A stretch of 64,000 nucleotides of DNA from Myxococcota bacterium (GTDB lineage: Bacteria; Myxococcota_A; UBA9160; JAFDDA01), in the NCBI GenBank assembly GCA_965228475.1, contig OZ245817.1, positions 4,064,001-4,128,000 of the forward strand, given 5' to 3'. This document shows positions 31,268 to 51,552 of the stretch, piece after piece. Position 1 is the first letter of the stretch; each line of letters starts with the position of its first letter. Under the pieces are notes generated by a model. It was not told the DNA's origin. It ran no database searches and was given only the letters and a program-made list of their open reading frames with translations. The position numbers and the translations under genes are program-made.

Positions 31268-32560
31268 GTGAAGACGCCTGAAATCACACGAGGATTGAGA
31301 CTGGTGGTGGCCCTGGCGTTCACGCTCGCCACGGGCTGCGCCTCGAACACCGGGCCCGCTCCGGGCAGCGCCGGTGGCCCGCCCGGCGCCCAGAGCCCGA
31401 GCGTCGCGGCCGGCCCGCCCGGCCCCTCCGCCATGGACCGCAGCACGGCCGCCCTCGAGGGGGCTGTCCTGGGCGCCATGATCGGCACCTGGATGGGCCC
31501 GATCGGCGCGGCCGTCGGCGCCGGCGCCTTCATGCTCTACGGCGCCATGACCGGCCGTGTGATGGGCTCCCCCGGCCCGAACACCGGGCCGCGCAACGAA
31601 CGCGAGCGCGAGGAAATCCTCGAGGACCAGATCGATCAGGAGATGCAGCGCCACGCCTCGCTCGAGTCCGAGATCGAAGCGGAGCTCCGCCGGCAAGAGG
31701 AGCTGATGTCGCGCATCGAGCAGGACGAGGCCATGGCCGAAGCCCTCGGCGACGAGATCGCCCCCGAGCTGAGCCAGGAAGAGATCGCCGAGCACGCCGA
31801 CGCCCGCGCCGCACCGCTCGCCCCGAAGGACCGCGACCTCCCCGAGTACATCTTCGACGTCGACACGATCGAGGTCGCGCGCGGCGAGTGGGGCAACCGC
31901 AAGAAGATCGAGGCCACGCGGCGCAGCCTGGATGCGGACCGTGACGGAAAGCCGGAAGAAGTCCGCTACTTCGACCCCCAGGGCACCTACCTCCGCAAGG
32001 AGGAAGACCGCGACTTCGACGGCAAGATCGACGCCTGGTCGGTCTTTCGCGGCGGCGAGCTCGCCACACGCGAACTCGACTCCAACGGCGACGGCCAGCG
32101 CGACACCTGGGAACACTTCGCGCGCGGCCGCATGACGGCCCGCGAGGTCGACCGCAACAACGACGGCAAGCGCGACGCCTTCTTCGAGTACCAGAACGAC
32201 TCGCTCGTCCGCGAGCGTCACGACACCAACTACGACGGCACGATCGACTTCCGCGTCACCTACGCGAACCGCCGGCGCGTGAAGGCGGAAGAGGACGCGA
32301 ACAAGGACGGGAAGATCGACACCTGGACGAGCTACATAGCCGTCGAGGACCGCGAGGCCGTCGACCGGATCGAGCGCGACCAGGCCGGCGACGGCAAGGC
32401 CGACACCTTCGAGGTCTACGTCCAGACCGGCGGGAAGTCCGTCCTCCAGAAGAAGGAAGAGGACAAGAACGCCGACGGCGAGATCGACATCACCTCGATC
32501 TACGAGAACGGCAAGCTCGTCCGCCGGGAGATCAGCGACCCGGCGATGATGCCGCTCTAG
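31268..32560 (+). CDS. lipoprotein with glycine zipper, coiled coil and eight Dx[DN]xDG-type repeats
   Basis: LATGC lipobox; GAVLGAMIG...GAAVGAG; repeats such as DRDFDGKIDAW, DSNGDGQRDTW, DANKDGKIDTW. Confidence 0.75.
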   Translation: MKTPEITRGLRLVVALAFTLATGCASNTGPAPGSAGGPPGAQSPSVAAGPPGPSAMDRSTAALEGAVLGAMIGTWMGPIGAAVGAGAFMLYGAMTGRVMGSPGPNTGPRNEREREEILEDQIDQEMQRHASLESEIEAELRRQEELMSRIEQDEAMAEALGDEIAPELSQEEIAEHADARAAPLAPKDRDLPEYIFDVDTIEVARGEWGNRKKIEATRRSLDADRDGKPEEVRYFDPQGTYLRKEEDRDFDGKIDAWSVFRGGELATRELDSNGDGQRDTWEHFARGRMTAREVDRNNDGKRDAFFEYQNDSLVRERHDTNYDGTIDFRVTYANRRRVKAEEDANKDGKIDTWTSYIAVEDREAVDRIERDQAGDGKADTFEVYVQTGGKSVLQKKEEDKNADGEIDITSIYENGKLVRREISDPAMMPL

Positions 32561-33162
32561 GCGATCTCCTCGGACAGCCGCTCGGGCGCATCGATCGCGA
32601 TGTAGCCGCCCTCCAGCCGCACGACGCCACCCGCCACCCAATCCCGCAGGTGTTTGTTCACGCTCTCGCGTGAGGCGCACACCATCGAGCCGAGTTCTTC
32701 CTGGGAGATCCGGAGATCGATGCGGACGCCGGAACCGTCGGGCACCCCGAATCGTCTGCGCAGAGCGAGCAGCGTCTTCGCGATCCGCGCCTTCACGTCG
32801 AGAAAGGCCTGATCTTCGAGCCGTTCGCCGAGCGCACGGATCCGGCCGGCGAGCACCTCGAGGAGCCGGAACGCCGAGTCGGGATGGCCGCGGACCAGCG
32901 CCGTCAGCTCTCCGCCGTCGAGGACCACCAGCTCGCAGTCCTCGAGCGCCGTCGCCGTCGCGGTCCGACGGCCTCCAGAGAGGGCCGAGAGCTCGCCGAC
33001 GAGATCGCCGGGGCCGGCGATCCCGAACACGAATTCCTGGCCCCGGGGCGAAACCGCGCCCAACCGCAGCCGACCCCGCCGCACCACGTAGACCTCGTGG
33101 CCTAGCTGCCCCTTGTGAAAGAGCTCGTCGCGGGCTTTCAGGGCGAGCGTTCGGCTGGGCAC
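32557..33162 (-). CDS. Crp/Fnr family transcriptional regulator (Crp2)
   Basis: GELSALSGGRRTATA cNMP-binding cassette; HTH ISQEELGSMVCASRESVNK; GTG at 33162 has GGAGG 7 nt upstream (track start 33186). Confidence 0.9.
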   Translation of the reverse strand: MPSRTLALKARDELFHKGQLGHEVYVVRRGRLRLGAVSPRGQEFVFGIAGPGDLVGELSALSGGRRTATATALEDCELVVLDGGELTALVRGHPDSAFRLLEVLAGRIRALGERLEDQAFLDVKARIAKTLLALRRRFGVPDGSGVRIDLRISQEELGSMVCASRESVNKHLRDWVAGGVVRLEGGYIAIDAPERLSEEIA

Positions 33163-33208
33163 CTCGGGACCTCCGGGATCGAGCATGGAGCCCGGCGGCC
33201 GGAGACGC

Positions 33209-33224
33209 CGTGAAGCACTTCACA
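33209..33224. promoter_or_regulatory. CRP box (class II position) upstream of crp2
   Basis: CGTGA-AGCACT-TCACA; centred at -41.5 if CATGCT (33187..33182) is the -10. Confidence 0.75.
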
Positions 33225-33957
33225 GAGTCGGGGTTTCGCTCGTGCGCCCGGCGCGCGCCGGATCCGCCAGGGCCTCGAGCGGCCCCCGGTCGTGGACGCG
33301 CACGACGCCCGACTCGCTCGAGAGCCAGCCTTCCTGCTCGAAGGCACGCATCTGCTTGTTCACCGCCTCCCGGGTCGCCCCGACGAGGTTGCCGAGCTCG
33401 GTCTGGGACAGCTTGAGGTCGATGCGCAGGCCGTCGGACTCCTCGACGCCGTACTCGTCCGCCAGGGCGAGCAGGGAGCGGGCCAGGCGGTTCGGGAGGT
33501 TGCGGAAGAGCGTGTCCTCCATGACCTCGCTCACGTGAGTGAGGCGCTCGGCCAGGGACGACATGCAGGCGATGGCGATCTCGGGCTGGCGCCGCATCAC
33601 GTCGAGGAGGTCCCGCCGGTGGATCACGAGGAGCTCCGCGGGCGTCAGCGCGGTCACGGTCGCGGTGCGGCGGCCGCCGAAGAGCATCGCGACCTCCCCG
33701 ATGACCTCGCCTTCCTTCATGATCGAGAAGGTGATCTCCCGGCCGTCCTCGGAGGTCGACGCTGCCTTGAGGCTGCCGCGAAGGACGGCGTAGGCCTCGT
33801 TTCCCTCGTCTCCCTTGTGAAAGAGCTCCTCGCGGGCGGCCAGCTTCTTGCGGACGGTCCGCTCGGCGAGCAGGTCGAGTTCGGCCTCGCCGAGCGACGC
33901 GAACACGAAGATCTGCGAAAGCAGCTGACGGCGATCGACGACGGCGGTGTCGCTCAT
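33220..33957 (-). CDS. Crp/Fnr family transcriptional regulator (Crp1)
   Basis: GEVAMLFGGRRTATV cNMP cassette; HTH LSQTELGNLVGATREAVNK; ATGA coupling to upstream gene. Confidence 0.92.
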   Translation of the reverse strand: MSDTAVVDRRQLLSQIFVFASLGEAELDLLAERTVRKKLAAREELFHKGDEGNEAYAVLRGSLKAASTSEDGREITFSIMKEGEVIGEVAMLFGGRRTATVTALTPAELLVIHRRDLLDVMRRQPEIAIACMSSLAERLTHVSEVMEDTLFRNLPNRLARSLLALADEYGVEESDGLRIDLKLSQTELGNLVGATREAVNKQMRAFEQEGWLSSESGVVRVHDRGPLEALADPARAGRTSETPTL

Positions 33958-34364
33958 GGCCCGTCCAGACGATGGTTCCGCCCGGTCACGAGGTAGGCCA
34001 CGCCCGCCACGAGCAGGCCGATGGCCGTCGCACTGGAGAGGTTCACGCCGAAGCACGGCCAGCCGCACTCGGGCGTGGCGAGCGAGATGAACAGCACCGG
34101 AAAGATCACGAGCGCGCCGACGAGCGGCCCGCGCAGCCACCACGGCTCGGGCCAGGTCGAGACCCCGACCCAGAAGCCGACGAGCATCCGCGCCGTGTAG
34201 AACGCCCAGACCATGCGCGAGCCGTCGAGGTAGTGCGTGTCGAACTTGTAGGGGATCGGGCCGTGCAGATACTGCGGCAGCCACCCGAGTGCGATGCCGA
34301 GCACTGCGCAGAGTGCGACGTACGGGACGTTCCGGCGCGCGCCATCCTGCGAGAACTCAGACAA
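33954..34364 (-). CDS. small integral membrane protein (about 4 TM)
   Basis: TTG start after GGAGG; four hydrophobic segments; overlaps both neighbours. Confidence 0.7.
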   Translation of the reverse strand: MSEFSQDGARRNVPYVALCAVLGIALGWLPQYLHGPIPYKFDTHYLDGSRMVWAFYTARMLVGFWVGVSTWPEPWWLRGPLVGALVIFPVLFISLATPECGWPCFGVNLSSATAIGLLVAGVAYLVTGRNHRLDGP

Positions 34365-35496
34365 GCGTTTCCTCCCGAGGCGCCCGGCCGGCGACGAGAT
34401 GATACGCCTGGGTCCGGTTGGTCTCGAGGAACGCCTCCGAGGCACGCAGGAAGACCCGGAAGGCCCGGACCGACTCCTCGCCGAAGCGTTCCGCCAGGGC
34501 CTTCTCTTCCCGCTCCAGCGCGTCCGCCCAGTCGCGACAGGTCCATGCGTAGGAGATCGTGTCGTCGACGAGTTCGTGCACGTTGAAGCCCTGGGCGACG
34601 AGCGCTTCGAGGAGCTTCGGCACGTTCACGTAGCGGGCGGTGCCCGGGAAGATGTAGCGGCCGAGGAACGCGCCGACCTGGAACCCGCTTCGCTCGCTGC
34701 AGAAGTCCGCCCAGAGGCGGCCGTCGTCGCGGAGGTGGGTCGCGAGGAAGCGGGCGGCATAGGCGTAGTCGGTGAAGTGCTCGAAGGTTCCCATGAAGAC
34801 CGCGCCGTCGAAGGGCATGGCGGGCTCGAAGTCGAGCAGGTCGATCCGTTCGACGCAGCAGGGGAGCGAACGCTCGCGAATCAATCCTTCGACGAAACGC
34901 CGCTGTTCCTCCGAGAGCGTGATGCCGTGCACCTCGATTCCGCGGAGTCCGGCGAATTCGAGGAACGAGCCCCAGCCGCAGCCCATGTCGAGCACACGCA
35001 TGCCCGGTTCGAGCCCGAGCGTCTCGATGGCGCGCTCGAACTTGCGGGCCTGGGCCTCCTCGGGAAGATCGTCTTCGGACGCGTAGAGCCCGTGCGAGTA
35101 GGAGCGCCAGCGCTCGAACCAGGGCAGGAAGAACTCGGGCGGGCGATCGTAGTGGAAGGCCACGGACTCGCGCTGCAGGCTGCGGCGGTCGCGGAGCAGG
35201 AGCTGTGCCGCGAAGCGCAGCCGCTCGTAGAGCGAGGGGTCCGGGGCGATCACCTCGGTGAGTCGGATGACTTCGCGGAAGTCCCCTTCGACGTCGATCG
35301 CGCCGTGCAGATAGGCCTCGGCGACGCCGAGCAGGTCCTGCCGCTCGAGGGCGCAGAGCGCCTCGTCTTCGTGGAACACGACCCGCGTTCGCTCCGGGTC
35401 CGGGCCGACCCGGTGGAGCACCTCGCTCTCGTTCTCGAGGGTGAGGTTGGCGCCGGCCTCCGCGAGGGCGTCGATGAGCGGGACGAGGGCGTTCAC
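34357..35496 (-). CDS. cyclopropane-fatty-acyl-phospholipid synthase-like class I SAM methyltransferase
   Basis: EAYLHG, VAFHYD, YSHG, EEAQARK, VLDMGCGWG, GITLSEEQ, FEH, YIFPG; GTG overlaps giant-gene stop (GTGA). Confidence 0.88.
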   Translation of the reverse strand: MNALVPLIDALAEAGANLTLENESEVLHRVGPDPERTRVVFHEDEALCALERQDLLGVAEAYLHGAIDVEGDFREVIRLTEVIAPDPSLYERLRFAAQLLLRDRRSLQRESVAFHYDRPPEFFLPWFERWRSYSHGLYASEDDLPEEAQARKFERAIETLGLEPGMRVLDMGCGWGSFLEFAGLRGIEVHGITLSEEQRRFVEGLIRERSLPCCVERIDLLDFEPAMPFDGAVFMGTFEHFTDYAYAARFLATHLRDDGRLWADFCSERSGFQVGAFLGRYIFPGTARYVNVPKLLEALVAQGFNVHELVDDTISYAWTCRDWADALEREEKALAERFGEESVRAFRVFLRASEAFLETNRTQAYHLVAGRAPREETLV

Positions 35497-35588
35497 GCGG
35501 CGCTCTTCGACCCCTCCGGGCGCGTGCGCCGGCGCCGCAGGCGCGCCAGGCCGAGCAGGCCGATCAGCTCGGGGCCGAGCCCGCAGCC
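35472..35588. repeat. 117-bp direct repeat, copy A (end of giant gene A plus start of methyltransferase)
   Basis: Nearly identical to 41266..41382 (about 5 mismatches by eye). Confidence 0.9.
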
Positions 35589-38500
35589 ACCGGCCTTTTC
35601 CTTCGCAACGTAGGGGTTCCCGTTGCACTGCGGGTCGGGCAGGCCGAAGCCGCCGCCGTCGTAGTCCGTGAAGCCGTCGGCGTCGTTGTCGAGACCGTCG
35701 CTGCAGGCCGGGTCTTCCCGGGCGCCGTCGGGGGCGATGCAGCCCGGATCGCCACCGACGTCGGAGCCGTAGTCGCCGTCGTTGTCCCGGCCGTCGTCGC
35801 ACACCAGCAGGTTCGAGCGCTCGCTCGTGTCCGCACCGTCGTCGCAGCCGGCGTCGGCGAGATCCACGAGGCCGTCGCCGTCGTTGTCGATGCCGTCGCT
35901 GCAGGCGTTGCCGCCTCCGACGTAGGCGCAAAGAGAATCGCAGACGCCATCGATGCCGTTCTGCGAACCGTGGTCGCAGCCTTCTCCGTACTCCTGGATG
36001 CCGTTGCCGCAGCTCTGGCGGTCGCAGGCATCGCCGATGCCGTCGCCATCGACGTCGAGCTGATCGCCGTTGGCGACGTCCTGGCAGTTGTCGATCGGGT
36101 CGGCGAGGCCGTCGCCGTCCGCGTCGGCCGCGGTGGCGATGGTCGTCGTGCCGAGGTCGCAGGTGGCACCTTCGTTGCACTGAGAGTCGTTGTCGCAGGA
36201 GCCGTCGCCGTCGGAGCAGCGGCCGCGCGTCACGTAGCGCTGGCGGCCGTCCTCCGCCTCCTCGAGCGTGGCGAAGAGCGCCTCCGGGTTCAGACCGTCG
36301 TCGACGCAGACCTCGGTGGCCGCGCACTCGGCGTCGGTCAGGCACGGCCCGGTGATGTCCTTGCAGGTGAAGGACCCCGGAACGCCGAGCACGGGGGAGC
36401 AGAACTCGTCCCCGGGGCACGAGTCCGGAACCTCGGGGTTGCAGCCCGAGCCGGTGTCGAAGAGGCAGCCACCCGGCGGGAAGTAGCATTCGCCTCCGCC
36501 CGAGCAGTCGGCATTGCTCGCACAGCCCGCCGCCGTGACGGTGCAGATGCCCGCGACCGCTCCACCGACGATGTCGCACGCGTCCTCCATCGATCCGCCG
36601 GCGATCAACGCCTCCGGGTTGAAGTGCTGGATGACGAGGTTCAACGGCCCGCCGCTCTGGTCGAGGTCGTTCCCGCCCTGCTGGGCCTCGAGCGTGAGGA
36701 AGCTCACCTTCGTGCCGAGGACGCGGTACGGGATGCGCGGATCACAGGCTTCCACCGGGCACGGAATGGCGGCCTGCATGCCGTTGTAGGTGCGGCCCGT
36801 GGACAGGTCCATGACGTGCATGACCGAATCGAAGAGATCGCCGTCCGCCACGCCTCCCACGATCGGCGGCACGACGCCGTTCAGGTTGACCCCCTCCCCT
36901 TCTTCGCTCACCCGGAACGCGATGATGTCCTCTCCGAGGACGAAGTCGTCGACGGCGGGGTTGAAGCGAGCCACGCCCTGGTCGTCGAGGAAGGCGACGG
37001 GCTGTCCGCTGGCGTCGTAGACGTGCAACACGCGGTCGAGCTGATCGCCGTCTCCGTTCAAGGCGGCTCCCTGGTCCGCCTCCGGCACGGTGAAGGCGAC
37101 GAAGCCTCCGACGGTCTGGACGTCGTCCGCGGCCAGGAAAAGGTTCTGCCAGGTCCCGCTCGTTCCCGTCGCCGTGTCGTTCAGATGGACGACGAGGTCG
37201 TCCATGTCGCCATCGCCGTTCAGGAAGAGGCCTTCCTGCGCCTCCGAGGCCAGGGCTGCAACGACCTGACTCGAAACCGCGACCTGATCGGCGGCCAGGG
37301 CCAGGTTCACCGCGGGGCCGGCCTGGCGGTTGCGGTAGAGCTGGACGACGAGGTCGTCGAAGTCGCCGTCGCCGTTGTGGTCGACTCCAGCGCCCGCCGC
37401 GGACTCGTCGGCCAGGAAGGCCGCGTTGCCATCGCGCACGCTGACGGCCTCGGCGCTGCCGAAGCGAAGGACGGTGAAGGGGCCGACCGCCTGCGTGTCC
37501 GCGACCGCGAGCACCGTGTCGCGCGAGTCCCCGTCGCCGTTCAGGTCGTTGCTCGCGCCGTCGAGCGCGGGTTTGCGGAGGTAGCGGCCGCCCGGAAGCA
37601 GCTTGGCGTGGAAGACCGTCTCGGCGTCCCCCTGGATCTGCCCGGAAGTGTCGGGCTGATTGCCGAGTCCGTCGGGGAAAAACGAGAAGATCCTGGTGAC
37701 TCGGTCCACGAACTGCGGAGCGAAGCTCCCGGAAGGATGGCCACCGAAGTAGAAGGGCTGGACGAGTGCGTAGCGGCCGTCCGAAGAGAGCGTGCCTCCC
37801 TGGCTGGGCGTGTCGAAGCCCAGCGTGGAGAGCCCGACCTCCTCGCGCGACACCGTCCCCGGCTCGTCGAAGATGCCGTCGTCGTCGCCGTCCCGATCGT
37901 AGATGACCGCCAACCCGCCGGGCTGCCAGCCCATGATCACGCGGCCGTCGTCGCTCATGTCCGTCGGGATGATCCACTGGGTGTCGAGCAGGGAGGGCGA
38001 GACGAACTCGGCTTCGCCGCTCTCGTCGTAGATTCCGTCGCCATCGAGGTCTCGGTCGAGGATGAAGGCGTCGCTGCGCAGGTTCGTATCCCCCGCGATG
38101 AGGTTCGACGCCGTCGAGCGGAAGAGAACGTAACGGCCGTCGCGAGACATCTCCGCCGGCGTGAACAGGTCGTCGTTGGGCGCCACGCCCACCCCGAGCA
38201 CGGCGTCACTCGCCCGATAGCTCGCGATCGCCCCGGGCTCGTCGTAGATCCCGTCTTCGTCGGTGTCCCGGTCGTGGATGACGAGCTCGCTGTCCAGGAA
38301 CGCGTCGCCAGCGATCATGTTCGTCGCGCTGGAGGCGAAGACCACGAACCTTCCGTCGTCGCTCATGCGCGGACGCGAGGAGCCGTTGTTGGCCTGGACA
38401 CCGGCCGAGCTCACGCTCACCCGGACGTTCGCCACGAAACCCGGCTCGTCGTAGATCCCGTCCTCGTCGGTGTCCCGGTCGTGGATGAACACGTCGTCGC

Positions 38501-41382: not shown

Positions 41383-44300
41383 CGTGCCTTCCTTGTTCAC
41401 CGAAGCGTTCGGGCATTGCGGGTCCGGATCGCTGAAGCCACCGCCGTCGAAATCGGTGAAGCCGTCGCCGTCGTTGTCCAGACCGTCGCTGCAGGCGGGA
41501 TCCTCGCGAAGCCCGCCCGGGAGGAGGCAGCCCGGGTCACCCCCGACGTCCGCACGGTAGTCCCCGTCGTTGTCCCGGCCGTCGTCGCACACCATCACGT
41601 TCGTGCGCTCGCTCGCGTCGGCCGCGTCGTCGCAACCCGGATCGATCAGATCCACCCGGCCATCGCCGTCGTTGTCGATGCCATCGTTGCACGCGGTTCC
41701 GGCGCCCTCGTAGGCGCAGGCCGCGTCGCACACGCCGTCGATCCCGTTCTGGGCGCCGTGGTCGCACCCCTCGCCGTACTCCTGGACCCCGTTCCCGCAC
41801 ACCTCGCGGTCGCAGGCATCCCCGATGCCGTCGCCATCGATGTCTAGCTGGTCGCCGTTGGCGACGTCCTGGCAGTTGTCGATGGGGTCGGCGAGACCGT
41901 CGCCGTCGGCGTCGGCCGCGGTGGCAATCACGAGGACGTCGAGGTCGCAGGTCGCACCCGCGTTGCACTGGGCATCGCTATCGCAAGACCCATCCCCGTC
42001 CGAGCAACGGCCCCGGGTCACGTAGCGCTGGCGGCCATCCTCTTCCTCGCGGATCGAGGCGAAGAGTTGCTCCGGGTTCGACTGGTCCGCGACGCAAACC
42101 TCGGATGCGGAGCACTCATCGTCCGTCAAGCACGGGCCGGTGAATTCCTGGCAGGTGAACGTTCCCGGAGAACCAGGCTGAGGTGCACAGAACTGACTAC
42201 CGCTGCAAGTCACGGGGTTCTCCGGTGCACAGATCGTCCCGGTGTCGGAGAGGCAGCCGCCGGGTGGGAAGTAACAGGTGCTCCCTCCGGTGCAGTCGAG
42301 ATCGCTCGCGCAGCCTTCGCCCGTCGCGGTGCAGAACCCCCCGATGGCTCCGCCGAGGATGTCGCACGCGTCTCCCATCGGCGCCCCAGCAGCCAAGGCA
42401 CCGGCGTTGAAGTGCTGGAGCACGAGGCTCAGAGGCCCCCCGCTCTGGTCCAGGTCGTTTGTCCCCTGCTGCGCCTCGAGGGTGAGGAAGGTGACCTTGT
42501 CGCCCAGAACGCGGTAGGGGACACGCGGATCGCAGGCTTCGACCGGGCACGGAATCGCCGACTGGTTCGAGTTGTAGGTGCGGCCGGTCGCCAGGTCCAT
42601 CACGTGGATCACGGCGTCCAGCAGGTCGGCGTCGGCGACCCCACCGGGAATAGGCGGAACCACGCCGTTGAGATTGACGCCCTCCCCCGCCTCACTGACC
42701 CGAAAGGCGATGATCTGCTCACCCAGGACGAAATCCTCGACTGCGGGGTTGAAGCGCGGTGCGCCAGTTTCGTCGAGGAAGAGAACGGGCTGGCCGGCCC
42801 CATCGTAGACGTGCAGCACGCGGTCGAGCTGATCACCGTCGCCGTTCAGCGCGGCACCTTGGTCAGCCTCCGGGACGGTGAATGCGACGTAGTCACCCCG
42901 GGCCTGAACGTCGTCCGCCGCCAGGAAGAGACTCTGCCAGGTCGCATCGGTGCCGGTTGCCGTGTCGTTCAGGTGGACGACGAAGTCGTCCATGTCGGCA
43001 TCGCCGTTGAGGAACAGGCCTTCGCCGGCCTCGGAGACCAGAGCTGCGACCCACGCGTCCGAAACCGCGACCTGCGATGCCGCCAGGCCGAGGTTGACGG
43101 GACTCCCGACCTGCCGGTTCCTCCACAGGTGGACGACCGAGTCGTCGAAGTCGCTATCGCCATTGAGATCGAGGACCGGATCGGCGGCTTCGTCGCGGAG
43201 CCAGACGGCCGTCCCGTCCGCAATCTGCACGTCCTCGCCCGGGCCAAGGAAGGCCGCGGCTGGCATCGCGGCCTGGGTGTCGAGAACCGAGAGCAGCACG
43301 TCCTCGGCGTCCCCGTCGGAGTTCAGGTCGGCACCGAGATCGAAGCGATCGACCGTCGAGATCATCAGCGTATCGTTGTCGTTGAAGGGCGCGATGGTGT
43401 CCCGCACCACGATGCTGGTGGCATCCGCCGAGACGGGCATCATCCAGGGCCCATCGGCCAGACCCAGGACCAGCGCGTTCCCCCGGAGGCCGGTCTCGAA
43501 ATCGGCGGTCTCGATCCCGAAGCGGGTGAAGCCGACCCGTCGTCCCGATGGATCGAGGCCCAACGCTTGATCGTCGACGACGCCGAGATCCACGATGTCG
43601 ATGCCGTCCGATTCGTCGAAGACACCGTCCTCGTCCGCGTCGCGGTCGACGACGATCGCAGCGACGCACGAGGTGAAGGGACACTCACCGTTCGCGAGGA
43701 AGCTCACGAAGCGCCCGTCGTCGGAGACGTCTGTGAGCTCGACGACGTTGCTCACCCCGGGAAGGGGCATGATCGAGGACACGATGGTCGCGGCGGTGAT
43801 CGTCCCTGGCTCGTCCAACAACCCGTCGTCGTCGGAGTCGCGGTCGAAGACGACCACTTCCGCGTTCACGTTGAGGAAGGCCGCGATGAATCGACCATCC
43901 GGCGTCATCTTGAGCGGCCGATTCGTGGTCGGCAGACCCAGGCCGGCCTCCGTGCCGAGGTCGATCACGACGTTCGGCGGAGCGATCTCATCGTAGATCC
44001 CGTCGCCATCGGGGTCTCGATCGGTGACGAAGACTCCACCGACGAATCCGCCGCCAACCTCGTTTCCGCGCAGGGCGGCGACGTGGCGCCCATCGGACGA
44101 GATCTGCGGAAACACGGTCGCGAAGATCGGCACCGCGAAGTCGAGCAGCGTGGTCGTCGGCAGCCCGGGGCCGGGCCCCTCGTCGAAGATGCCGTCCTCG
44201 TCGGGGTCCCGGTCTCGCACGTAGACGTCGAAGTTCCCGTCGACGTCGCCCGGCCCGAGGGATCGCGTCGCGAGAGCGAGATGGCGCCCGTCGTCACTCA

Positions 44301-46908
44301 GGTCTGCGCCGCCGAAGGTGTAGATGGGGAACGGGTCGCAGATGCCGATGCAGCCGATCTCTGCCCCGGTGTCGGAGAGGCTTTGCCTCGTGATCTCGGT
44401 GGCGCCGGCCTCGTCCAGGATGCCGTCCGCGTCGGTGTCGCGATCCAGCACGAAGTGATCGGGGTCGAAGTTGGTGTCCCCAGCGACCAGGTTGTCGGCA
44501 TCGCTCTCGAAGATCAGGAATCGACCATCGGGCGTGATGTCCCCCGGGAAGGTCATCGAGTTCGGAGCCGGTTCGGGCGACAGCACGACGGTGCTCCGGA
44601 CCGCCGAGTCGAGCTCCGAGCTGCGGTAGAAGAGCAGACCGTCAGAAAGGCGTAGCGGCGCGTCTGCCACCTCCGGGAGGGCGTCGAGTGCCGGGGGCGT
44701 GCCCGTCACGAGCGCGACGGGAGACCCAGCCTCCAGCCGGAAGGCGCGGAGTACGCCATCGACCGTGTCTCCGTCGAGAGTGGAGTCGGAATCGCCCTCG
44801 CCGTACTCGGACTCGACCATCGCCAGGACGTCACCTTCGACGTCGAAGGCCGGGAAGCGGTAGGGGAACACGCGGACCCGCGTGCTTGCACGCCCCGCGG
44901 CGCCCGGAGCGCCGATCTCGACGACCTCGCCCGTTTCGGCGTCGACCATCGAGACGATCGTGGTGTCGTCCTGGTCGCCGTCCAGGTTGAGGTCTGCCGA
45001 CTCGAGGGGCTCGGACCGGACGAACATGAACAGATCGTCGTTGGCGACGAGGCCATCGATCGCTGCCGGGTTCGCTGCCTCGGCCGTGTAGTCGACGCTC
45101 GACAGCAGGACCGGGCCCGTCCCCCCCGCGGAGTAGCGATCGCTGAAGTCGAAGTTCGAGGGTCCGCACTCCCCGCCCGGGCAGGCGCCGTCGCCCGAGC
45201 AGACCAACCCGTCCCGGCTTCCGCCGCGGCAGCGCGCCCGGACGCAGGTCGAAGCCGGGCACTCGAAGTCCGCGATGCAGGCCAGAGCGCCTCGCGGACC
45301 ACCGGCACACTCCTTGAACTCAGGACTCCGGCGAAGAACCCGGATCACTCCGATCTCGGCGTCCGTGGAGCCGAACAGGGTGGTGTCGGAACTCTGGGGG
45401 TCGGAAATCGGGTTGAACAGCGGATCGACCCGCAGCCCTTTCTGGGAAAGCGACTGCAGGAAGCGCAACCCGGGTACCTGGATGGGCGCACCGAGTGTCT
45501 GATTGACCTCCGGTGGGGTGCCCGTGAACGCGGCTACGGAGGTACTGACGCTCACGAGCCGGGGAATGGGCAGGGTCCGGGGCTGAACGAGGACCCCGCG
45601 CCAGTCCACCGGCACGACGACGTTGCCCTCTGCATCGGTCGTGAACTGGACGTCGACACCGCTGTTGTTGCAGCTGACGGAAGGATTGGTTGCGGTGCAG
45701 ATGTCCTGGAAGTCGTTGGGTGCGGGAAGCGCCGTCAGCCCGGCGAACTGTGGGTGGGCGTTCGCGGCGTCGGTCTCACAGGTCCCGTCCTGCGCGTAGA
45801 TCTCGTCCGTACACGCGATGAGACCGGCCGCGGGGCCGAGGTCCGCGCAGCGGTTCGTTGCCAGTTCGCACGGCAACGGACCGCCATCGAAGGTCACCGC
45901 GACGGAGACGGGACCGGCGAAGGACGTTGCCGGGAAGTCCAGAGTCAGCCGATCCGTCGTCGCCGTGATCGCCGGATCCTCGACGCAGGTGGGCATCGGC
46001 CCGCCGAGCTCGGCGCCGCAAGCCGCCAGCTCTGCGGCCATGGCGGCGCAACCCCCGGCGACGGGAGTGACCACCACGGCGTTCGAGGGTCCGGCGGGCG
46101 GCTCGAAGACGAAGGTCACCACGTTGGGCGTGCTCGTCGATTCTTGGAGCGTCAGGTTGTCGATGCCGTAGGAATCGCATGAAGCGTCGCCCAGCTCGCC
46201 GAGGATGAGGACGCTGCTGACGTTCGAGAGCACCTGGTCCCACGTCTCGGCGCCCGCCGCGAGGCTCCAACCGGGCGGCGGACTGCTGCCCGGCGCGACG
46301 GGAATGCTGAAGCTCCCCCAGCTCCCGACGGGAATCGCGTCGATCTCGGCCTGTGAGGGCTCGTACTGGTAGGTGGTTCCAGCTCCGGAAAGGACTCGAA
46401 CGAGCGGGATCGGCACCGTCAGACGGGCGCCTCCGCAAAGACTCACGATCTGGTGGTCCCACGCAATGCCGGTGACACCACGCGCGATCCAGTCGCCGTC
46501 CCAGCTCGAGGGCGCGCTGACACCGGCGTCGGTCGTCGGTGCGATGTCCTGGCCGAACACATGGCCATCGGGGTTGCCACCGGGCGATTGCCAGAAGAAC
46601 AGGTCGTGGAAGCCGCTCACCAACCAGCCCTCGAGATCCGCCGCGAACGGGCTGACCAGCGGGCTGGGCATGCTGTTCGGGAAACTCGTGCCCGCCTCGC
46701 AGCCGGCGGGGGCATCGTCGAGCGAAACCACGAGTGGATCGCCGGCGCTCGCGTACACGCGGTTCAGGCTTCCGACGGCGCCGCGGAACTCGGTCTCGGG
46801 TTGGGGAATGACGTCGCAATACGACACGGCGGGGGTCGGCTGGAGGACGAGGACCAGGGCGACCGCCACGGCCGCCCGAAGAGAGGTGGTGCGAACGGAG
46901 ATCTTCAT
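41287..46908 (-). CDS. giant secreted surface protein B, paralog of A
   Basis: Shares long near-identical blocks with A (YCDVIPQPETEFRGA, VDWRGVLVQPRTLPIPRLV, AIPCPVEACDPR, CGLGPELIGLL); alternative ATG at 46926. Confidence 0.85.
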   Translation of the reverse strand: MKISVRTTSLRAAVAVALVLVLQPTPAVSYCDVIPQPETEFRGAVGSLNRVYASAGDPLVVSLDDAPAGCEAGTSFPNSMPSPLVSPFAADLEGWLVSGFHDLFFWQSPGGNPDGHVFGQDIAPTTDAGVSAPSSWDGDWIARGVTGIAWDHQIVSLCGGARLTVPIPLVRVLSGAGTTYQYEPSQAEIDAIPVGSWGSFSIPVAPGSSPPPGWSLAAGAETWDQVLSNVSSVLILGELGDASCDSYGIDNLTLQESTSTPNVVTFVFEPPAGPSNAVVVTPVAGGCAAMAAELAACGAELGGPMPTCVEDPAITATTDRLTLDFPATSFAGPVSVAVTFDGGPLPCELATNRCADLGPAAGLIACTDEIYAQDGTCETDAANAHPQFAGLTALPAPNDFQDICTATNPSVSCNNSGVDVQFTTDAEGNVVVPVDWRGVLVQPRTLPIPRLVSVSTSVAAFTGTPPEVNQTLGAPIQVPGLRFLQSLSQKGLRVDPLFNPISDPQSSDTTLFGSTDAEIGVIRVLRRSPEFKECAGGPRGALACIADFECPASTCVRARCRGGSRDGLVCSGDGACPGGECGPSNFDFSDRYSAGGTGPVLLSSVDYTAEAANPAAIDGLVANDDLFMFVRSEPLESADLNLDGDQDDTTIVSMVDAETGEVVEIGAPGAAGRASTRVRVFPYRFPAFDVEGDVLAMVESEYGEGDSDSTLDGDTVDGVLRAFRLEAGSPVALVTGTPPALDALPEVADAPLRLSDGLLFYRSSELDSAVRSTVVLSPEPAPNSMTFPGDITPDGRFLIFESDADNLVAGDTNFDPDHFVLDRDTDADGILDEAGATEITRQSLSDTGAEIGCIGICDPFPIYTFGGADLSDDGRHLALATRSLGPGDVDGNFDVYVRDRDPDEDGIFDEGPGPGLPTTTLLDFAVPIFATVFPQISSDGRHVAALRGNEVGGGFVGGVFVTDRDPDGDGIYDEIAPPNVVIDLGTEAGLGLPTTNRPLKMTPDGRFIAAFLNVNAEVVVFDRDSDDDGLLDEPGTITAATIVSSIMPLPGVSNVVELTDVSDDGRFVSFLANGECPFTSCVAAIVVDRDADEDGVFDESDGIDIVDLGVVDDQALGLDPSGRRVGFTRFGIETADFETGLRGNALVLGLADGPWMMPVSADATSIVVRDTIAPFNDNDTLMISTVDRFDLGADLNSDGDAEDVLLSVLDTQAAMPAAAFLGPGEDVQIADGTAVWLRDEAADPVLDLNGDSDFDDSVVHLWRNRQVGSPVNLGLAASQVAVSDAWVAALVSEAGEGLFLNGDADMDDFVVHLNDTATGTDATWQSLFLAADDVQARGDYVAFTVPEADQGAALNGDGDQLDRVLHVYDGAGQPVLFLDETGAPRFNPAVEDFVLGEQIIAFRVSEAGEGVNLNGVVPPIPGGVADADLLDAVIHVMDLATGRTYNSNQSAIPCPVEACDPRVPYRVLGDKVTFLTLEAQQGTNDLDQSGGPLSLVLQHFNAGALAAGAPMGDACDILGGAIGGFCTATGEGCASDLDCTGGSTCYFPPGGCLSDTGTICAPENPVTCSGSQFCAPQPGSPGTFTCQEFTGPCLTDDECSASEVCVADQSNPEQLFASIREEEDGRQRYVTRGRCSDGDGSCDSDAQCNAGATCDLDVLVIATAADADGDGLADPIDNCQDVANGDQLDIDGDGIGDACDREVCGNGVQEYGEGCDHGAQNGIDGVCDAACAYEGAGTACNDGIDNDGDGRVDLIDPGCDDAADASERTNVMVCDDGRDNDGDYRADVGGDPGCLLPGGLREDPACSDGLDNDGDGFTDFDGGGFSDPDPQCPNASVNKEGTGCGLGPELIGLLALARLRRRRMHPEGSKSAA

Positions 46909-46959: not shown

Positions 46960-46975
46960 TGTGAACCACTTCACA
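46960..46975. promoter_or_regulatory. CRP box (class II position) upstream of giant gene B
   Basis: Perfect TGTGA-ACCACT-TCACA; -10 GAAGCT (46938..46933), +1 at A46926. Confidence 0.88.
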
Positions 46976-47059: not shown

Positions 47060-50000
47060 TCAGGCCCGGGGGCCGCGCAGTCCCATTCCGGCTAGTGCAC
47101 GATCGACCCGCTCGACCTCCGGGAGCATCCCGAGCGCCTCGGCTTCGGCGCGGGCCCGGAGCCACCAGCGGCGGGCGCCCCGGGCATCGCCGATGAGCGA
47201 ACGGCGCGTTCCTTCGAGGCGCTGGATCTCGGGCCGGCGCAGGGCCACCCAGCCTCCGGCGCGCAGCGCTTGCCGGGCGACCCTGCGCGCGAGCTGCCGG
47301 TCTCCCCGGCCCTCCGCGAGGGCATCGAGCTCGCACAGCAGCCGGGAGCGCAGCACGACCGCCTTGTGGAAGGGAGGCACGAAGGCGGTCGCCTCGGAGA
47401 GCAGCGACTCCGCGGCGGTCAGGCTGCGCTCGGCCTCCTCCCGCCGCCCGAGGCCCAGCTGGGCCTTCGCCTTGTTCCCGAGAGCCAGGAGGTTCGGGAG
47501 CGGGTCCGGCTGCTCGCTGAAGTGCGCCTCGGCCGCCTCGATCGCCCGCTCCCATTCTTCCCGCTCGAGCGCCAGGAACGTCTCGAGCGCCCGCACCGTG
47601 GCCTTCGCCTGCTCGAACTGGAAGAGTTCGGCCACATGCTCGAGGCGCGCGATCCCCGTGCGCGCCTCCTCGAACCGGCCCTGCATGATGCGGCGCTCGG
47701 TCTGCAGGCCCAGGTAGTTGGTGACGTCGAAGAGCTGGCCGTCGCGGATCCGGTCCTCGAGGAAGTCGACGGGCAGCTCGTGTGCCGCGCTCCAATCGCC
47801 GGCCAGCGTTTGGTGGGTGGCATTCATCATGCCGTAGATCATGCGCTCTTCCGGGTCGTCGGCGTCCACGAGTTCCCGGGCCTGGGCGAGGAACCGCTCG
47901 CTGATGGCGAAGGAGACGCCGCCGAAGGAGAAGATCCCGACGCTCGATGCGAACTGTCCGCCGGCGAGCGGAAGCGTGCGCGGGTCGACGTCTCCCAGGC
48001 GACGCACGGCGTCCATCCAGTCGAAGAGGTAGCGGTCCGTCGCGTTCGTCGTCTGCGCGCGCGCGCGCTCGTAGACGAGCTCCTGGATCTGGCGTTCCGT
48101 TTCCGTCGCCCCGCGACGCGCCCTCCCGAAGCGGCGGAAGTAGACGCGGCCGAGGATCAGCGCGAGGTCGCGCACGAGGCGGAGGTTGCGGCGAATCGGC
48201 TGCTTCGCTCCGACCACGCCATGGCATTCGAGCGCCGCGTCGAAGTGGAGGATGGCCTCGGCATAGCGGCCGCGGTTCACGAGAGCCAGGGCCATGTTCC
48301 GCTCGAGCAGGCCGAGCTTCTCCGAGCGGTCTTCCTCACCGTGGAGATTGCGGAACAGGGCGGCGGCGTCCTCGAAGAAACGCAGTGCCTCGTCCGATGC
48401 CGCGGAGCGCGCCGCTTCGTCGCCGGCCGCGAACAGGTGGTGCTCGGCGCGCTCCACGTCCCCCGCACGACTGAAGTGGTGCGCGAGCATCGCGTGGGCA
48501 CCGGGCTCGTCGCCGTCGAGCCGCGCCTCGACGGCGCGGCCCACCTGGCCGTGCAGCTCGCTGCGCCGGCCCTCGAGCATCGAGTCGTAGACGACCTCCT
48601 GGATCAAGGGATGCTTGAACTGGAACTCGCCGGCTCGCCCTTCGCGGCGTTCGATCATCTCCGACGTCTCGAGGCGCGCCAGGTCGCCCTCGACCGCGCG
48701 GCCCTCCACATCGGCGAGGACATCGCCCTCGAAGGCGAAGCCGATCGCCGACGCGACGCGCAGGAGGTCGCGCCCCTCCCGGCCGAGACGGTCCACGCGG
48801 GCCATCACGACCTCCTGGAGGGTTCCGGGGACGGCGACCTCGTGGATCCGGGGCGTCGCGACGAGTCGGCCGCCGCGCTCTTCGAGCGCGCCGGCGTCCC
48901 GCAGGCCGCGGACGACCTCCTCGGCGTAGAAGGGGTTCCCCGTCGCCCTTTGTTCGATCGCCGTGCGGAGCGCGTGGGGCACGTCGGCGCCGCGGAACAG
49001 GTTGCGCAGGAGCTCCATCGAAGCGCCGGCATCGAGGGGCGCGAGGGTGATCTCGGTGTAGGCCTCGGGCAGGCGCTCCCGCGCCGCCGCGCGCACGCGG
49101 TCTGCGGTCTCGGGCCAGCCCGGGCGAGTCACCAGCAGGAAGAGGATCGGCTCGGTCTCGGCGAGCCGCAGCAGGCTCGTGAGCAGCTCGATCGACGACG
49201 CGTCGGCCCAGTGCAGGTCCTCGAAGACCAGGGCCACCGGCTCCCGCCTGGCCATTCCCTGGAGCGTGCGCGTGATGGCCGCGAGGAGCAGCGGCTCGAG
49301 GGCCTCCGGAGCCAGGCGTTCGAAACGCTCACGTTCCTCCTCCGGGAGCGGCGCGCCCAACAGCGTCGAGAGGAAGGGAACGACCTCCTCCGCCTCGCTT
49401 CCGAGCTCCGCGGCCGCCGTGCGCGTGAGCTTCTCGGCGAGAGCGGCCTTGGGCTCGTCGTCGTCCGCGCCGCACCAATCGGCGAACAGGTCCGCGAAGG
49501 GGTGATGGCCGAGCGTCCTTCCGTTCGAGAGCGAGCGTCCCTTGAGCCAGCGGAAGCCCCGTGCCTCCGCAGGGAGCGCCTCCGCGAGCAGGCGGGACTT
49601 GCCGATCCCGGCTTCGGCCACGACCGAGACGATGCCGCCGGTTCCTGCCGCGAGCTCGCGCGTGGCCCGGTTCAGCGCGGCGAGCTCCGCATCGCGACCG
49701 ACGAGGACCGAGCGCACGCGCCCGGGCGCCGACGGCGTCGAACGGTGGAGCTTCGTCGTCTCCGAGCGCAGCTCGTAGGCGGCCTCGCCGTCCGCCCCGA
49801 CCGGCGCATAGTCGAAGTCGTCCCGGGTCGCGCGCGCCGTCTCTTCCCCGACGAAGATGCTCCCGGGCGGCGAGAGGTCTTCGAGCCGCGCGGCACCGCT
49901 GACGGACTCGCCCATCAGCGAGTACTCGCGGATGAGCGGACCGCTCACCTCCCCCGCGATCCCGAGGCCCGTATCGATTCCGATGTGGATCCCGAAGGGA

Positions 50001-51544
50001 GAAGCGAGTCCGCGTTCTTCGTTGAAGGTGGCGACGGCCCGTCGCATCTCGATGCTGGCATTGATGGCCGCGCGCGGCGCATCCTCGATCGAGACCGGAA
50101 CGCCGAAAACCGCCATCACGCAGTCGCCGAGGTACTTCTCGACGGTTCCACCGTGGCGGCGCGCGATCCCACTCAGGCGGTCGAGGCAGTCACTCACCAG
50201 GGGATGCAGGGCGTCGGCCTCCATGCTCTCGGCGAGCGCGGTGAACCCGGAGAGATCCGCGAAGAGCACGGTGGCGCGGCGGCGCTCGGCGTCGTCCGCG
50301 CGCTCGCTGTAGTCGGAAGCGCGCGCTTCGTCCGCCTGGAGCGTCTCCGCGAGGAAGGCCGACTGGATCGCGCGGCCCGGGTTGCCGGCGGCGCGGCGCA
50401 CCACCAGGGCCCGTGCTTCGGGTTCGAGGACGTGTTCGGGTAGTGCGTCGACCAGGGCACCGATGGCCGCGTCGTCGAGCGGTCCAAGGGCAAGCTCGAG
50501 CGGGTCTTCTCCGATCGCCCGGGCCCGCTCGACCGCCTTCGCGGCGGCGTCCGGGAGAGGCGAACGTCCCGCGACGAAGACGAGCGTCGAAGGCGGAAGA
50601 TCGGCCAGAACCGCGGCGAGATCCGTGCGCCGGCCGCCGTCGTCGACGACGAAGATCCCGCCCTCTACCGAGGGCATGCGGGAACCGGCGGGCGGCAGCG
50701 CGCGGATCCTCCGTTCCGGGTGGCGCCTCGTCAGCTCGAGCAGCAAACGGGACTTCCCGGCACCGGGGGGCCCCTCGATCGCGACGAGACCGCCCTCCCC
50801 GGCCGCCTGGCGATGCACGCGCGCGTCGAGCTGCGCGAGTTCGGCTTCCCGCCCGACGAACGGGGCGTAGCTCGCTACTTCGGCGCCGAAGGGCGCGTCG
50901 TCGTCGCGCTGCGCTTCCAGGATCTCTCGGGGCCGGGCGAGGTCCCGCACGCCCTGGAGCTTCACGGCCCCGACTTCCCGCATCACGAAACGGTTGCCGA
51001 GGAGCGCCGCGAGGCCGGCGCCGGCGTAGACCGTGCCGGCGGGTGCGAGCGATTTGATCCGGGCGGCGTGGTTTACGCACCGGCCGAGCACCGAGAACTC
51101 GCGAACCACCGAGTCGCCGAGCGCCCCGGCGAGAACCGGACCGGCCTCGAGGCCGACCTTCACGTCGAGGTCGACCGGCAGCTCGATCCGCTCGGCGACC
51201 TCCCGGACCGAGAGGCGCATCTCGAGGGCGGCCCGGGCCGCCGCCGCAGCCGCTTCCGCGGGCGTGAGCGGAAAGCCGAAGACGGCCATGAGGCAGTCGC
51301 CGAGGTACTTGTCGACGGCGCCACCGTGGCGGCGCGCGACGTCGTCGAGGATGCGCAGGCAGCGCGTGACCACCAGATAGGCTTCGTCGGCCCCGCGAGC
51401 CCGGGCGAGCGCCCCGAACCCGACGATGTCGGCGAACAGGATGCTCGCTTCCCGGTAGCTCGCGCTCCCCCCGGCGCGCTCGGGCGCGCTCTCCTCGGCT
51501 CCGGACATGACGTCAAGGGTGTCATGCCCGGCCGGCACTTCCAA
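47060..51544 (-). CDS. double class III adenylate/guanylate cyclase with AAA (STAND-type) ATPase and TPR-like C-terminus
   Basis: Two cyclase domains (FADIVGF/KYLGDC/VNHAAR and FADLSGF/KYLGDC/VSGAAR); P-loops GPPGAGKS and AEAGIGKS; Walker B FEDLHWAD; FKHPLIQEVVY; start TTG 51544 or ATG 51508. Confidence 0.9.
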   Translation of the reverse strand: MEVPAGHDTLDVMSGAEESAPERAGGSASYREASILFADIVGFGALARARGADEAYLVVTRCLRILDDVARRHGGAVDKYLGDCLMAVFGFPLTPAEAAAAAARAALEMRLSVREVAERIELPVDLDVKVGLEAGPVLAGALGDSVVREFSVLGRCVNHAARIKSLAPAGTVYAGAGLAALLGNRFVMREVGAVKLQGVRDLARPREILEAQRDDDAPFGAEVASYAPFVGREAELAQLDARVHRQAAGEGGLVAIEGPPGAGKSRLLLELTRRHPERRIRALPPAGSRMPSVEGGIFVVDDGGRRTDLAAVLADLPPSTLVFVAGRSPLPDAAAKAVERARAIGEDPLELALGPLDDAAIGALVDALPEHVLEPEARALVVRRAAGNPGRAIQSAFLAETLQADEARASDYSERADDAERRRATVLFADLSGFTALAESMEADALHPLVSDCLDRLSGIARRHGGTVEKYLGDCVMAVFGVPVSIEDAPRAAINASIEMRRAVATFNEERGLASPFGIHIGIDTGLGIAGEVSGPLIREYSLMGESVSGAARLEDLSPPGSIFVGEETARATRDDFDYAPVGADGEAAYELRSETTKLHRSTPSAPGRVRSVLVGRDAELAALNRATRELAAGTGGIVSVVAEAGIGKSRLLAEALPAEARGFRWLKGRSLSNGRTLGHHPFADLFADWCGADDDEPKAALAEKLTRTAAAELGSEAEEVVPFLSTLLGAPLPEEERERFERLAPEALEPLLLAAITRTLQGMARREPVALVFEDLHWADASSIELLTSLLRLAETEPILFLLVTRPGWPETADRVRAAARERLPEAYTEITLAPLDAGASMELLRNLFRGADVPHALRTAIEQRATGNPFYAEEVVRGLRDAGALEERGGRLVATPRIHEVAVPGTLQEVVMARVDRLGREGRDLLRVASAIGFAFEGDVLADVEGRAVEGDLARLETSEMIERREGRAGEFQFKHPLIQEVVYDSMLEGRRSELHGQVGRAVEARLDGDEPGAHAMLAHHFSRAGDVERAEHHLFAAGDEAARSAASDEALRFFEDAAALFRNLHGEEDRSEKLGLLERNMALALVNRGRYAEAILHFDAALECHGVVGAKQPIRRNLRLVRDLALILGRVYFRRFGRARRGATETERQIQELVYERARAQTTNATDRYLFDWMDAVRRLGDVDPRTLPLAGGQFASSVGIFSFGGVSFAISERFLAQARELVDADDPEERMIYGMMNATHQTLAGDWSAAHELPVDFLEDRIRDGQLFDVTNYLGLQTERRIMQGRFEEARTGIARLEHVAELFQFEQAKATVRALETFLALEREEWERAIEAAEAHFSEQPDPLPNLLALGNKAKAQLGLGRREEAERSLTAAESLLSEATAFVPPFHKAVVLRSRLLCELDALAEGRGDRQLARRVARQALRAGGWVALRRPEIQRLEGTRRSLIGDARGARRWWLRARAEAEALGMLPEVERVDRALAGMGLRGPRA

Positions 51545-51552
51545 GCGCCGCC

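Follow-up and report, generated by a model that had tools for sequence, protein, structure and literature searches.

A STAND-type adenylate cyclase, tandem Crp-like regulators, and Crp-type boxes on an accessory island of a Myxococcota bacterium

Signaling by cyclic AMP (cAMP) and Crp is poorly mapped outside the enterobacteria, mycobacteria, and rhizobia. The nearest known circuit to the one considered here is that of Sinorhizobium meliloti, in which, as outlined in two reports (PMC5498481, PMC4222275), the class III receptor-type cyclases CyaD1, CyaD2, and CyaK act through the Crp-like regulator Clr on smc02178, within a small target set of unknown function, and not through global catabolite control. 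Here we analyzed a 64,000-nucleotide stretch of DNA (the window), which comprises positions 4,064,001 to 4,128,000 of the single 5.0-Mb contig (OZ245817.1) of a Myxococcota bacterium (assembly GCA_965228475.1, referred to as G000) and has a G+C content of ~70%. The window contains a 20.6-kb accessory island with a STAND-type adenylate cyclase, two Crp-like regulators, and two giant secreted proteins whose genes are preceded by Crp-type boxes. As in S. meliloti, the cyclase would act through a Crp-like regulator and not in catabolite control. The S. meliloti cyclases carry CHASE2 sensors, whereas the island cyclase carries a STAND/AAA_16 region, and the S. meliloti cascade is without giant exoproteins, an Lnt paralogue, a CMAS methyltransferase, a CxxxC membrane protein, or a tandem Crp pair. 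We take the S. meliloti genes to be chromosomally linked and the cascade to use a single Clr with a different box.

Other described systems resemble the island in part. The closest solved relative of Crp1 was Mycobacterium tuberculosis CRP (Rv3676), with which it shares an RE(T/A)VNK recognition helix; by comparison, G000 seems to have a very small Crp regulon (6 top sites), with the genes for the regulators inside the target operon. The combination of a cyclase with an AAA ATPase and TPR is known from Rv0386, as far as a preprint outlines it (bioRxiv 10.1101/2024.03.06.583649). The island cyclase differs from that type in having two cyclase domains and no helix-turn-helix (HTH). Proteins of the Rv0386 type presumably have one cyclase domain and a LuxR HTH at the end. 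Pseudomonas aeruginosa CyaB, the best solved match to both island cyclase domains, is membrane-anchored and lacks a STAND module, and Vfr, which we take to be a Crp homologue controlling surface and secreted factors, is a global regulator; neither is island-borne together with its targets. The island promoters recall class II promoters of Escherichia coli in having a 16-bp TGTGA-N6-TCACA-type palindrome ~21 to 22 nt upstream of the -10 element and no evident -35, and one further target, with a tandem site ~29 nt further upstream, recalls class III. Unlike in E. coli, the host genome has ~70% G+C, the -10 elements of the window are weak, and the geometry is predicted from sequence.

The best reading of the locus, to which we assign a probability of roughly 0.55, is that the island couples a conserved five-gene module (cyclase, Lnt paralogue, giant secreted beta-propeller-like protein, small CxxxC membrane protein, and CMAS-family methyltransferase) to a local cAMP-Crp switch that works by class II activation. 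In the proposed mechanism, the C-terminal helical-repeat region of the cyclase would sense a ligand, and the AAA_16 NTPase module would then drive oligomerization, bringing the cyclase domains together to make cAMP. Crp1 and/or Crp2, loaded with cAMP, would bind TGTGAAG(C/Y)ACTTCACA boxes centered ~41 nt upstream of transcription starts and activate three units: giant B; the operon of giant A, methyltransferase, membrane protein, and crp1; and crp2. Because both the crp1 operon and crp2 would be among the activated units, the regulator would be subject to positive autoregulation. Gene layout, protein residues, the excess and siting of the boxes, synteny, and phyletic co-occurrence are directly shown by the analysis; the ligand, cAMP as the product, binding by Crp, activation in preference to repression, and the island cyclase as the relevant source of cAMP are inferred.

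The seven genes named in an earlier, sequence-only reading of the window all lie on the negative strand and in the order described there. They encode the 1,494-aa cyclase (47060..51544; probable start ATG 51508), giant secreted protein B (41287..46908; the frame opens at 47049, with a probable ATG at 46908), giant secreted protein A (35493..41078; the frame opens at 41147, with a probable ATG at 41078), a CMAS-family S-adenosylmethionine (SAM) methyltransferase (34357..35496; GTG 35496), a small four-helix membrane protein with the motif C-G-W-P-C (33954..34364; start TTG 34364 or GTG 34304), Crp1 (33220..33957), and Crp2 (32557..33186). The overlapping stops and starts noted before were likewise found, as GTGA between giant A and the methyltransferase gene, as ATGA between the membrane-protein gene and crp1, and as 8 nt between the methyltransferase and membrane-protein genes if the latter starts at TTG 34364. 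The extent of 19 kb given to the block was too small, since the unit is a 20.6-kb indel that also includes an overlooked Lnt paralogue (51507..53114, positive strand), divergent from the cyclase gene. In a comparison genome of the same genus (G001, 89% complete), contig C208 joins the equivalents of window positions 32560 and 53127 across ~225 bp, and window positions 32,561 to 53,126 are therefore one indel. No integrase, tRNA, or flanking repeat was seen at the island. In G001, we found no close crp1 orthologue (best, 28% identity), no membrane-protein homologue, no full-length giant, and 0 boxes. The 225-bp spacer that takes the island's place in G001 (L073:2640-2868) holds a long inverted repeat with ~23 nt per arm, possibly a terminator or the scar of a recombination event.

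The cyclase consists of a cyclase domain, a short AAA_16 segment, a second cyclase domain, a second AAA_16 segment, and a 444-aa C-terminal tail of helical repeats. Guanylate_cyc (PF00211) matched twice (6.5e-41; 140.4 bits against a cut-off of 21.9), with both domains above the cut-off in a family search of the organism's own genome, and AAA_16 matched twice (1.7e-30; 107.2 bits against 32.6; first copy on its own, 7.2e-13). The protein is also TIGR03903-like, at 340.7 bits and under the cut-off of 705.75. Among solved structures, adenylate cyclases gave the best alignments to both cyclase domains, led by P. aeruginosa CyaB (3r5g; E values of 4.5e-19 and 7.1e-28). In the 3r5g alignment, the two metal-binding Asp residues and the substrate-specifying Lys are present in both domains (FADIVGF and FADLSGF; DKYLGDC and EKYLGDC), and Ser occupies the Thr/Asp partner position in both. 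Domain 1 contains the Asp, Lys, Asp, Ser, Asn, and Arg residues (VNHAAR), and domain 2 has retained Arg, with Ser replacing Asn (VSGAAR). We take the aligned Asp, Lys, Asn, and Arg positions to be those with catalytic roles. One complete site is possible in the domain 1-domain 2 pair, and since domain 1 has the full residue set and domain 2 is without the transition-state Asn, one pseudo-symmetric site would probably be active.

Crp1 and Crp2 each contain a cNMP_binding (PF00027) and an HTH_Crp_2 (PF13545) domain, both above cut-off. With the NCBIfam equivalog model of E. coli CRP (NF008732), they scored 93.7 and 73.2 bits, below the cut-off of 266; by these matches they are classed as members of the CRP/FNR superfamily and not as the enterobacterial equivalog. 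The closest solved relative of Crp1 (3d0s, E value of 2e-29) aligns with it over the GE...RT phosphate cassette, and G87, E88, R97, and T100 are invariant in 8/8 crp1-type proteins. The recognition helices TREAVNK and SRESVNK align with SRETVNK of 3d0s, which bears out the RExVNK helix of mycobacterial type proposed for both proteins, and R196, E197, N200, and K201 are invariant in the same eight proteins. An Arg-Glu-x-x-x-Lys/Arg helix presumably makes base contacts with TGTGA. We rejected an N-terminal extension of crp1 suggested by a tblastn row, which we judged to be a match running into Arg/Ala-rich, out-of-frame sequence.

Searches for TGTGA-N6-TCACA with up to one mismatch returned 3 sites in the window against 0.43 expected, and 0/100 shuffles reached 3. 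They lie upstream of giant B (box B, TGTGAACCACTTCACA, 46960..46975), giant A (box A, TGTGAAGCACTTCACA, 41133..41148), and crp2 (CGTGAAGCACTTCACA, 33209..33224, overlapping the crp1 stop). These are the three positions previously proposed, although only boxes A and B are perfect, and the crp2 box carries 1 mismatch. The sequence flanking the crp2 box shows no relationship to that around boxes A and B. The whole 5.0-Mb genome has only 4 perfect TGTGA-N6-TCACA sites. With the tighter pattern TGTGAA-N4-TTCACA, 6 sites were found at up to one mismatch versus 0 for the reversed control pattern, and 29 versus 7 at two mismatches. Half of the six (3/6) are in the island. Within the genome, the boxes are almost restricted to this locus, and at least 3 lie elsewhere: a tandem pair separated by 29 nt ahead of the gene for an 826-aa secreted protein at 786,231, and a sixth site at 4.737 Mb upstream of a secreted protein ending in VPE, a hydrophobic stretch, and basic residues.

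We evaluated how the module is distributed in 193 genomes of the order. The small membrane protein has no Pfam or NCBIfam family and was chosen as the marker on that account; it was present in 20/193 genomes. Neighbors within 10 kb were counted at 33 marker loci from species-representative metagenome-assembled genomes (MAGs) labeled Myxococcota, Deltaproteobacteria, or Candidatus Binatia, and the counts are lower bounds, since many contigs are short. An Lnt paralogue lay beside the marker at 15/33 loci, a giant relative at 12/33, a cyclase at 10/33, and a CMAS methyltransferase at 8/33. Separate clustering of called open reading frames at 23 loci gave the giant 13 times, the cyclase and Lnt 7 times each, and the methyltransferase 5 times (6 with the window's own, which the caller had overlooked). 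Complete five-gene sets were found at L077, L091, and L097, and in G012 the order is cyclase, Lnt, box, giant, membrane protein. Orthologues of the C-terminal region of the cyclase occur in 35/193 genomes, namely in 19/20 marker genomes and in 16/173 genomes without the marker (Fisher p = 8e-16, an overstated value, since related genomes are not independent). The double-cyclase form was seen only in G000, G033, G035, and G122, the remaining orthologues aligning from about residue 350 to 430 onward. A weak 2OG-oxygenase-like protein was also noted in 5 loci.

Synteny thus upholds the recurrence of the five genes in related MAGs but not of crp in cis. Crp was beside the marker at 1/33 loci and absent from the neighborhood in the other 32; its linkage to the module is confined to G000 and, possibly, one truncated contig. 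These observations bear on a reading that we regard as possible, if clearly less probable than the local switch, in which Crp1 and Crp2 read cell-wide cAMP from other cyclases, the island cyclase serves another receptor or local enzymes, and the adjacency of the crp genes reflects co-transfer. G000 encodes 17 class III cyclase domains, which makes the source of cAMP ambiguous. The crp1 type is widespread (138/193 genomes, mostly as a single copy), and in most cases its gene stands apart from the module; G000 thus has a duplicated, island-borne version of a common regulator. Its closest relatives (75%, 71%, and 65% identity in G008, G043, and G122) are all outside the module; two of them adjoin an AAA_16 protein of 28 to 30% identity, and a perfect box lies ~270 bp upstream of the relative in G122. 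The neighborhoods of the crp1 orthologues in G033, G031, and G030 had no neighbor in common with the window. Module loci elsewhere also carry other receptors for cyclic nucleoside monophosphates (cNMPs), among them a HEAT+cNMP protein next to Lnt (G035), an MMPL+cNMP protein (G191), a cNMP-only protein between two giants (G031), a 480-aa cNMP protein (G059), and a truncated Crp-like gene next to the marker (G050); we regard this enrichment as suggestive, not proven. Given the 17 cyclase domains, the other cNMP-binding proteins, the boxes outside the island, and the frequency of the Crp type, the label "self-contained" once applied to the circuit was too strong. Against a purely cell-wide signal, however, cyclase, Crp box, and giant stand side by side in G000, G033, and G012, and both crp genes of G000 are inside the island together with 3/6 of the best boxes. 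How signals stay apart in bacteria with a dozen or more cyclases is a question that becomes directly testable here, since a single indel carries the cyclase along with the regulators, their operators, and the target genes.

The spacing of promoter elements bears on the direction of control. A spacer of 21 nt separates box B from a downstream GAAGCT, a weak -10 hexamer with A2 and T6, and the spacing from box A to its own GAAGCT is identical. After the crp2 box, 21 nt lead to CATGCT and then to GGAGG, 7 nt, and GTG 33162, which may be the true start of crp2. Among 9 oriented promoters from G000, G033, and G012, a hexamer with A2 and T6 starts 22 to 23 nt past the box in six (GAAGCT twice, CATGCT, TAGTCT, TAGGAT, and TAGAAT), two have a TA start without T6 (TATACA and TAGAGA), and the promoter of a regulator gene in G033 has no hexamer. 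None has a recognizable -35. This spacing would place the box center near -41.5. In class II CRP promoters the site lies near -41.5, and the box-to-(-10) distance fits class II activation, as judged from the sequence.

The same boxes might instead be operators, with Crp1 and Crp2 silencing the giants and the crp2 box mediating negative autoregulation or blocking read-through from crp1. We consider this improbable. It would account for the position of the crp2 box, across the crp1 stop and ~30 nt from the ATG annotated for crp2, and for the weak -10-like hexamers of the window, and two Crp paralogues with 38 to 42% identity could oppose each other. However, the equal spacing from box to A2/T6 hexamer in 6/9 promoters of three genomes, of which G033 has better -10 elements, points to activation, as does the lack of a recognizable -35 in any of them, a hallmark of activator-dependent class II promoters; at the 786-kb gene, the two tandem sites with their distance of 29 nt recall class III activation.

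Boxes of the same type, independent of those on the island, recur in other genomes. In G033, they stand in unrelated flanks upstream of giant paralogues (three with 0 to 1 mismatch, one with 2), and in G012 one perfect box lies between the Lnt and giant genes. Counts at up to one mismatch were 6 in G000, 13 in G033, 13 in G012, 1 in G031, 1 in G002, and 0 in G001, with a control count of 0 throughout. A crp1-type orthologue is present in G000 (crp1 and crp2), G033, G012, and G031, and none was found in G002 or G001; the number of boxes tracks whether a crp1 orthologue is present. In G033 and G012, 25/28 examined sites are intergenic, typically 40 to 110 bp from a gene start, with diverse targets. 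A box lies 1.3 to 6.5 kb from the crp orthologue in G033, G012, and G031. The G033 regulator gene mentioned above (L025:8303-10291) encodes an OmpR-type winged-helix and TPR protein between cyclase and giant and has a 1-mismatch box upstream; here the module has acquired a regulatory addition of another kind.

It is quite unlikely that a different CRP/FNR paralogue binds the boxes and that Crp1 and Crp2 have other targets. G000 does have at least four further CRP/FNR-like genes with 25 to 30% identity, but G001, which lacks the crp1 type and keeps paralogues of 27 to 28% identity, has 0 boxes, and the helix RE(A/S/T)(V/I)NK, invariant in the eight crp1-type proteins, matches a TGTGA-type site via the M. 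tuberculosis CRP alignment. Least credible of all is that the block is a Pycsar-like or STAND-sensor conflict system in which the cyclase signals attack by a phage or competitor and the remaining genes are effectors: although the island is variable, defense systems often contain STAND NTPases, and PADLOC gave domain-level matches of the cyclase to PycC (6.5e-39) and of the Crp cNMP domains to Pycsar effectors (3.6e-10), these matches cover only the shared class III cyclase and cNMP-binding folds (the other five proteins had none or generic ones), the fusion partner of the cNMP domains is a Crp HTH, with no TIR or membrane effector domain, the purine-specifying Lys is retained in the cyclase, whose best solved relatives are adenylate cyclases, and the boxes are located in promoters.

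Besides the abundance of cyclase domains and the usual separation of Crp from the module, several findings weigh against a local cAMP-Crp switch by class II activation. The first concerns the sensor. Of the STAND ATPase with TPRs envisaged in the sequence-only reading, the AAA_16 NTPase scored above cut-off, but all Pfam TPR matches in the C-terminal 444 aa were weak and below threshold, the best being TPR_12 at an E value of 0.0024 and 18.5 bits (cut-off, 30.1). In the window scan, neither the cyclase gene nor the Lnt gene had a box in front of it, and for the cyclase this means that feedback would act on crp and not on cAMP synthesis; the same finding speaks for a cell-wide source of cAMP. 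Boxes A and B are not independent, as both lie within an ~60-nt stretch that was duplicated along with the giant genes. The -10 hexamers of the window are weak, and activation of crp2 fits only with the downstream start at GTG 33162. In most genomes with the module, the giant gene had no convincing upstream box; the best candidates in G030, G031, G035, L079, L091, L094, L097, L108, and L109 showed 3 to 5 mismatches. A search for RNA runs over window positions 40900 to 47100 listed none. Structure prediction yielded no function for the giants: an AlphaFold model of giant residues ~230 to 800, from a 14-row alignment, reached a pLDDT of 60 and a pTM of 0.42, and a Foldseek search of the PDB with the giant model returned nothing at E values of 0.001 or below, the best matches being generic beta-propellers at 8e-3.

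A more far-reaching version of the switch can be formulated, which we hold to be doubtful. The five-gene set, with the membrane protein as a Sec/Cys (CGxxU) redox protein and in places joined by a fatty-acid desaturase or a 2OG oxygenase, would then be an undescribed cAMP-gated pathway that makes a modified acyl chain, and a dedicated N-acyltransferase would attach this chain to giant cysteine-rich surface proteins or build a membrane platform for them. By capturing its own Crp pair, G000 would have turned the pathway into a mobile, self-activating switch for surface remodeling.

The Lnt paralogue of the island has LNT_N and CN_hydrolase domains and matched TIGR00546 at 244.2 bits (cut-off, 132.9). 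The genome encodes three such paralogues, and the island copy is 34% identical to the other two. Relatives of the island copy lie directly upstream of giant genes at L039, L045, L050, and L055. Outside the window, at positions 2,243,824 to 2,247,842 of G000, a second Lnt paralogue overlaps the gene for an 809-aa membrane cyclase by 4 nt on the same strand, and the fourth perfect Crp box, at 4,737,514, has the gene for a similar 795-aa cyclase 2.5 kb away. The pairing of cyclase and Lnt may be a recurring theme.

The methyltransferase matched PF02353 (3.3e-41) and scored far below the cut-offs of the NCBIfam Cfa (cyclopropane fatty acid synthase) equivalogs (CfaB, 131.3 against 650; PRK11705, 124.8 against 400), which suggests membership in the broad CMAS family only. 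Its orthologues, at 48 to 69% identity, are found beside membrane-protein or giant genes in other genomes. In G035, a membrane-protein homologue shares one open frame with a fatty-acid desaturase (PF00487) beside a CMAS methyltransferase (L020:12591-14000); this desaturase link hints that the module modifies acyl chains.

The predicted structure of the small membrane protein had a pLDDT of 87.7, with the conserved C-G-x-x-C opening the fourth helix. There was no evidence for a new fold, as the best Foldseek match had an E value of 1.0 and the best VIA-align match a Z of 6.3 on a generic helical bundle. The second Cys codon of CGxxC is TGA in 15/20 homologues. A 10-bp hairpin lies 15 nt past the TGA in all 14 aligned TGA forms, with one covarying pair and several switches between G-U and A-U, and it is degenerate in the Cys forms. 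The gene selA was found in 3/3 tested TGA-bearing genomes and in G000 and was not found in G035, which has a Cys form. In public gene calls, members are all unnamed or called "hypothetical protein," and many are ~91 to 100 aa long, as truncation at the TGA would predict. On this evidence, we propose a candidate, apparently unannotated family of membrane selenoproteins, with homologues at L039-L056 and L077-L109. The window's own protein, with Cys at both positions, is by its sequence a Cys form and not a selenoprotein.

The giants begin with a signal peptide followed by AxA-x-Cys-Asp-Val-Ile-Pro. Their treatment as classical lipoproteins for the dedicated Lnt was not supported, since the invariant Cys stands one residue past an AxA site of the signal-peptidase-I type. 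The residue before this Cys varies (Y, V, D, N, Q, M, I, A, or G), and the site does not look like a canonical lipobox. At their C termini, the giants carry a tag of GCGLGPE, a hydrophobic stretch, and RLRRRR (window positions 35493-35600 and 41287-41400), which is shared with the 826-aa protein preceded by the tandem boxes (ACGLGTE, hydrophobic stretch, RRLRRR; G000 positions 788,600-788,711). The ~130-aa Cys/Asp-rich module ahead of the tag is widespread in the order. Searches of the curated NCBIfam CTERM models (PEP-CTERM, MYXO-CTERM, and others) with the C-terminal 50 and 135 residues from giant A (E values up to 10) gave only a chance-level match to WGxxGxxG-CTERM (1.6), yet the layout of Cys/Gly-Pro-Glu, hydrophobic stretch, and Arg resembles known sorting tags. 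Three giant paralogues of G033 without the CGLGxE tag (L021, L023, and L024) end in a conserved APAPxxC, and giant homologues of G012 and G017 end in GGCF/GAGCF-type motifs; such endings may represent other kinds of C-terminal signal.

Giants A and B are 58% identical in an N-terminal block, 75% in a C-terminal block, and ~37% in central PD40-like repeats, and are a tandem duplication that took in the promoter and box. Neither matched a Pfam or NCBIfam family, apart from weak repeat matches, those of giant A being to acidic double-disulfide repeats, and the ESM Atlas held no usable match to giant residues 1 to 800. Full-length relatives of giant A were found in G033, G030, G031, and G035.

The literature searched, at the level of abstracts and with few subscription journals, contained nothing on the module, on Crp control of such Myxococcota proteins, or on the selenoprotein family. 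The conserved module around the cyclase is the more novel part of the locus. The findings have no bearing on pathogenicity. It offers a lead in the recurrent neighborhood of Lnt, giant exoprotein, membrane protein, cyclase, and methyltransferase in MAGs labeled Myxococcota and Binatia, and the apparently unannotated selenoprotein family and the C-terminal tag outside curated sorting-signal models are further leads.

Two minor features of the window remain. A consensus scan for terminators and promoters was at chance level overall (5 hairpins against 7.7 expected); one terminator-like hairpin (41165..41178, negative strand) lies between the giant B stop and box A, where its position alone is suggestive. 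Beyond the island, on the negative strand at 58577-64000, a further very long open frame of more than 1,800 aa runs past the end of the window.

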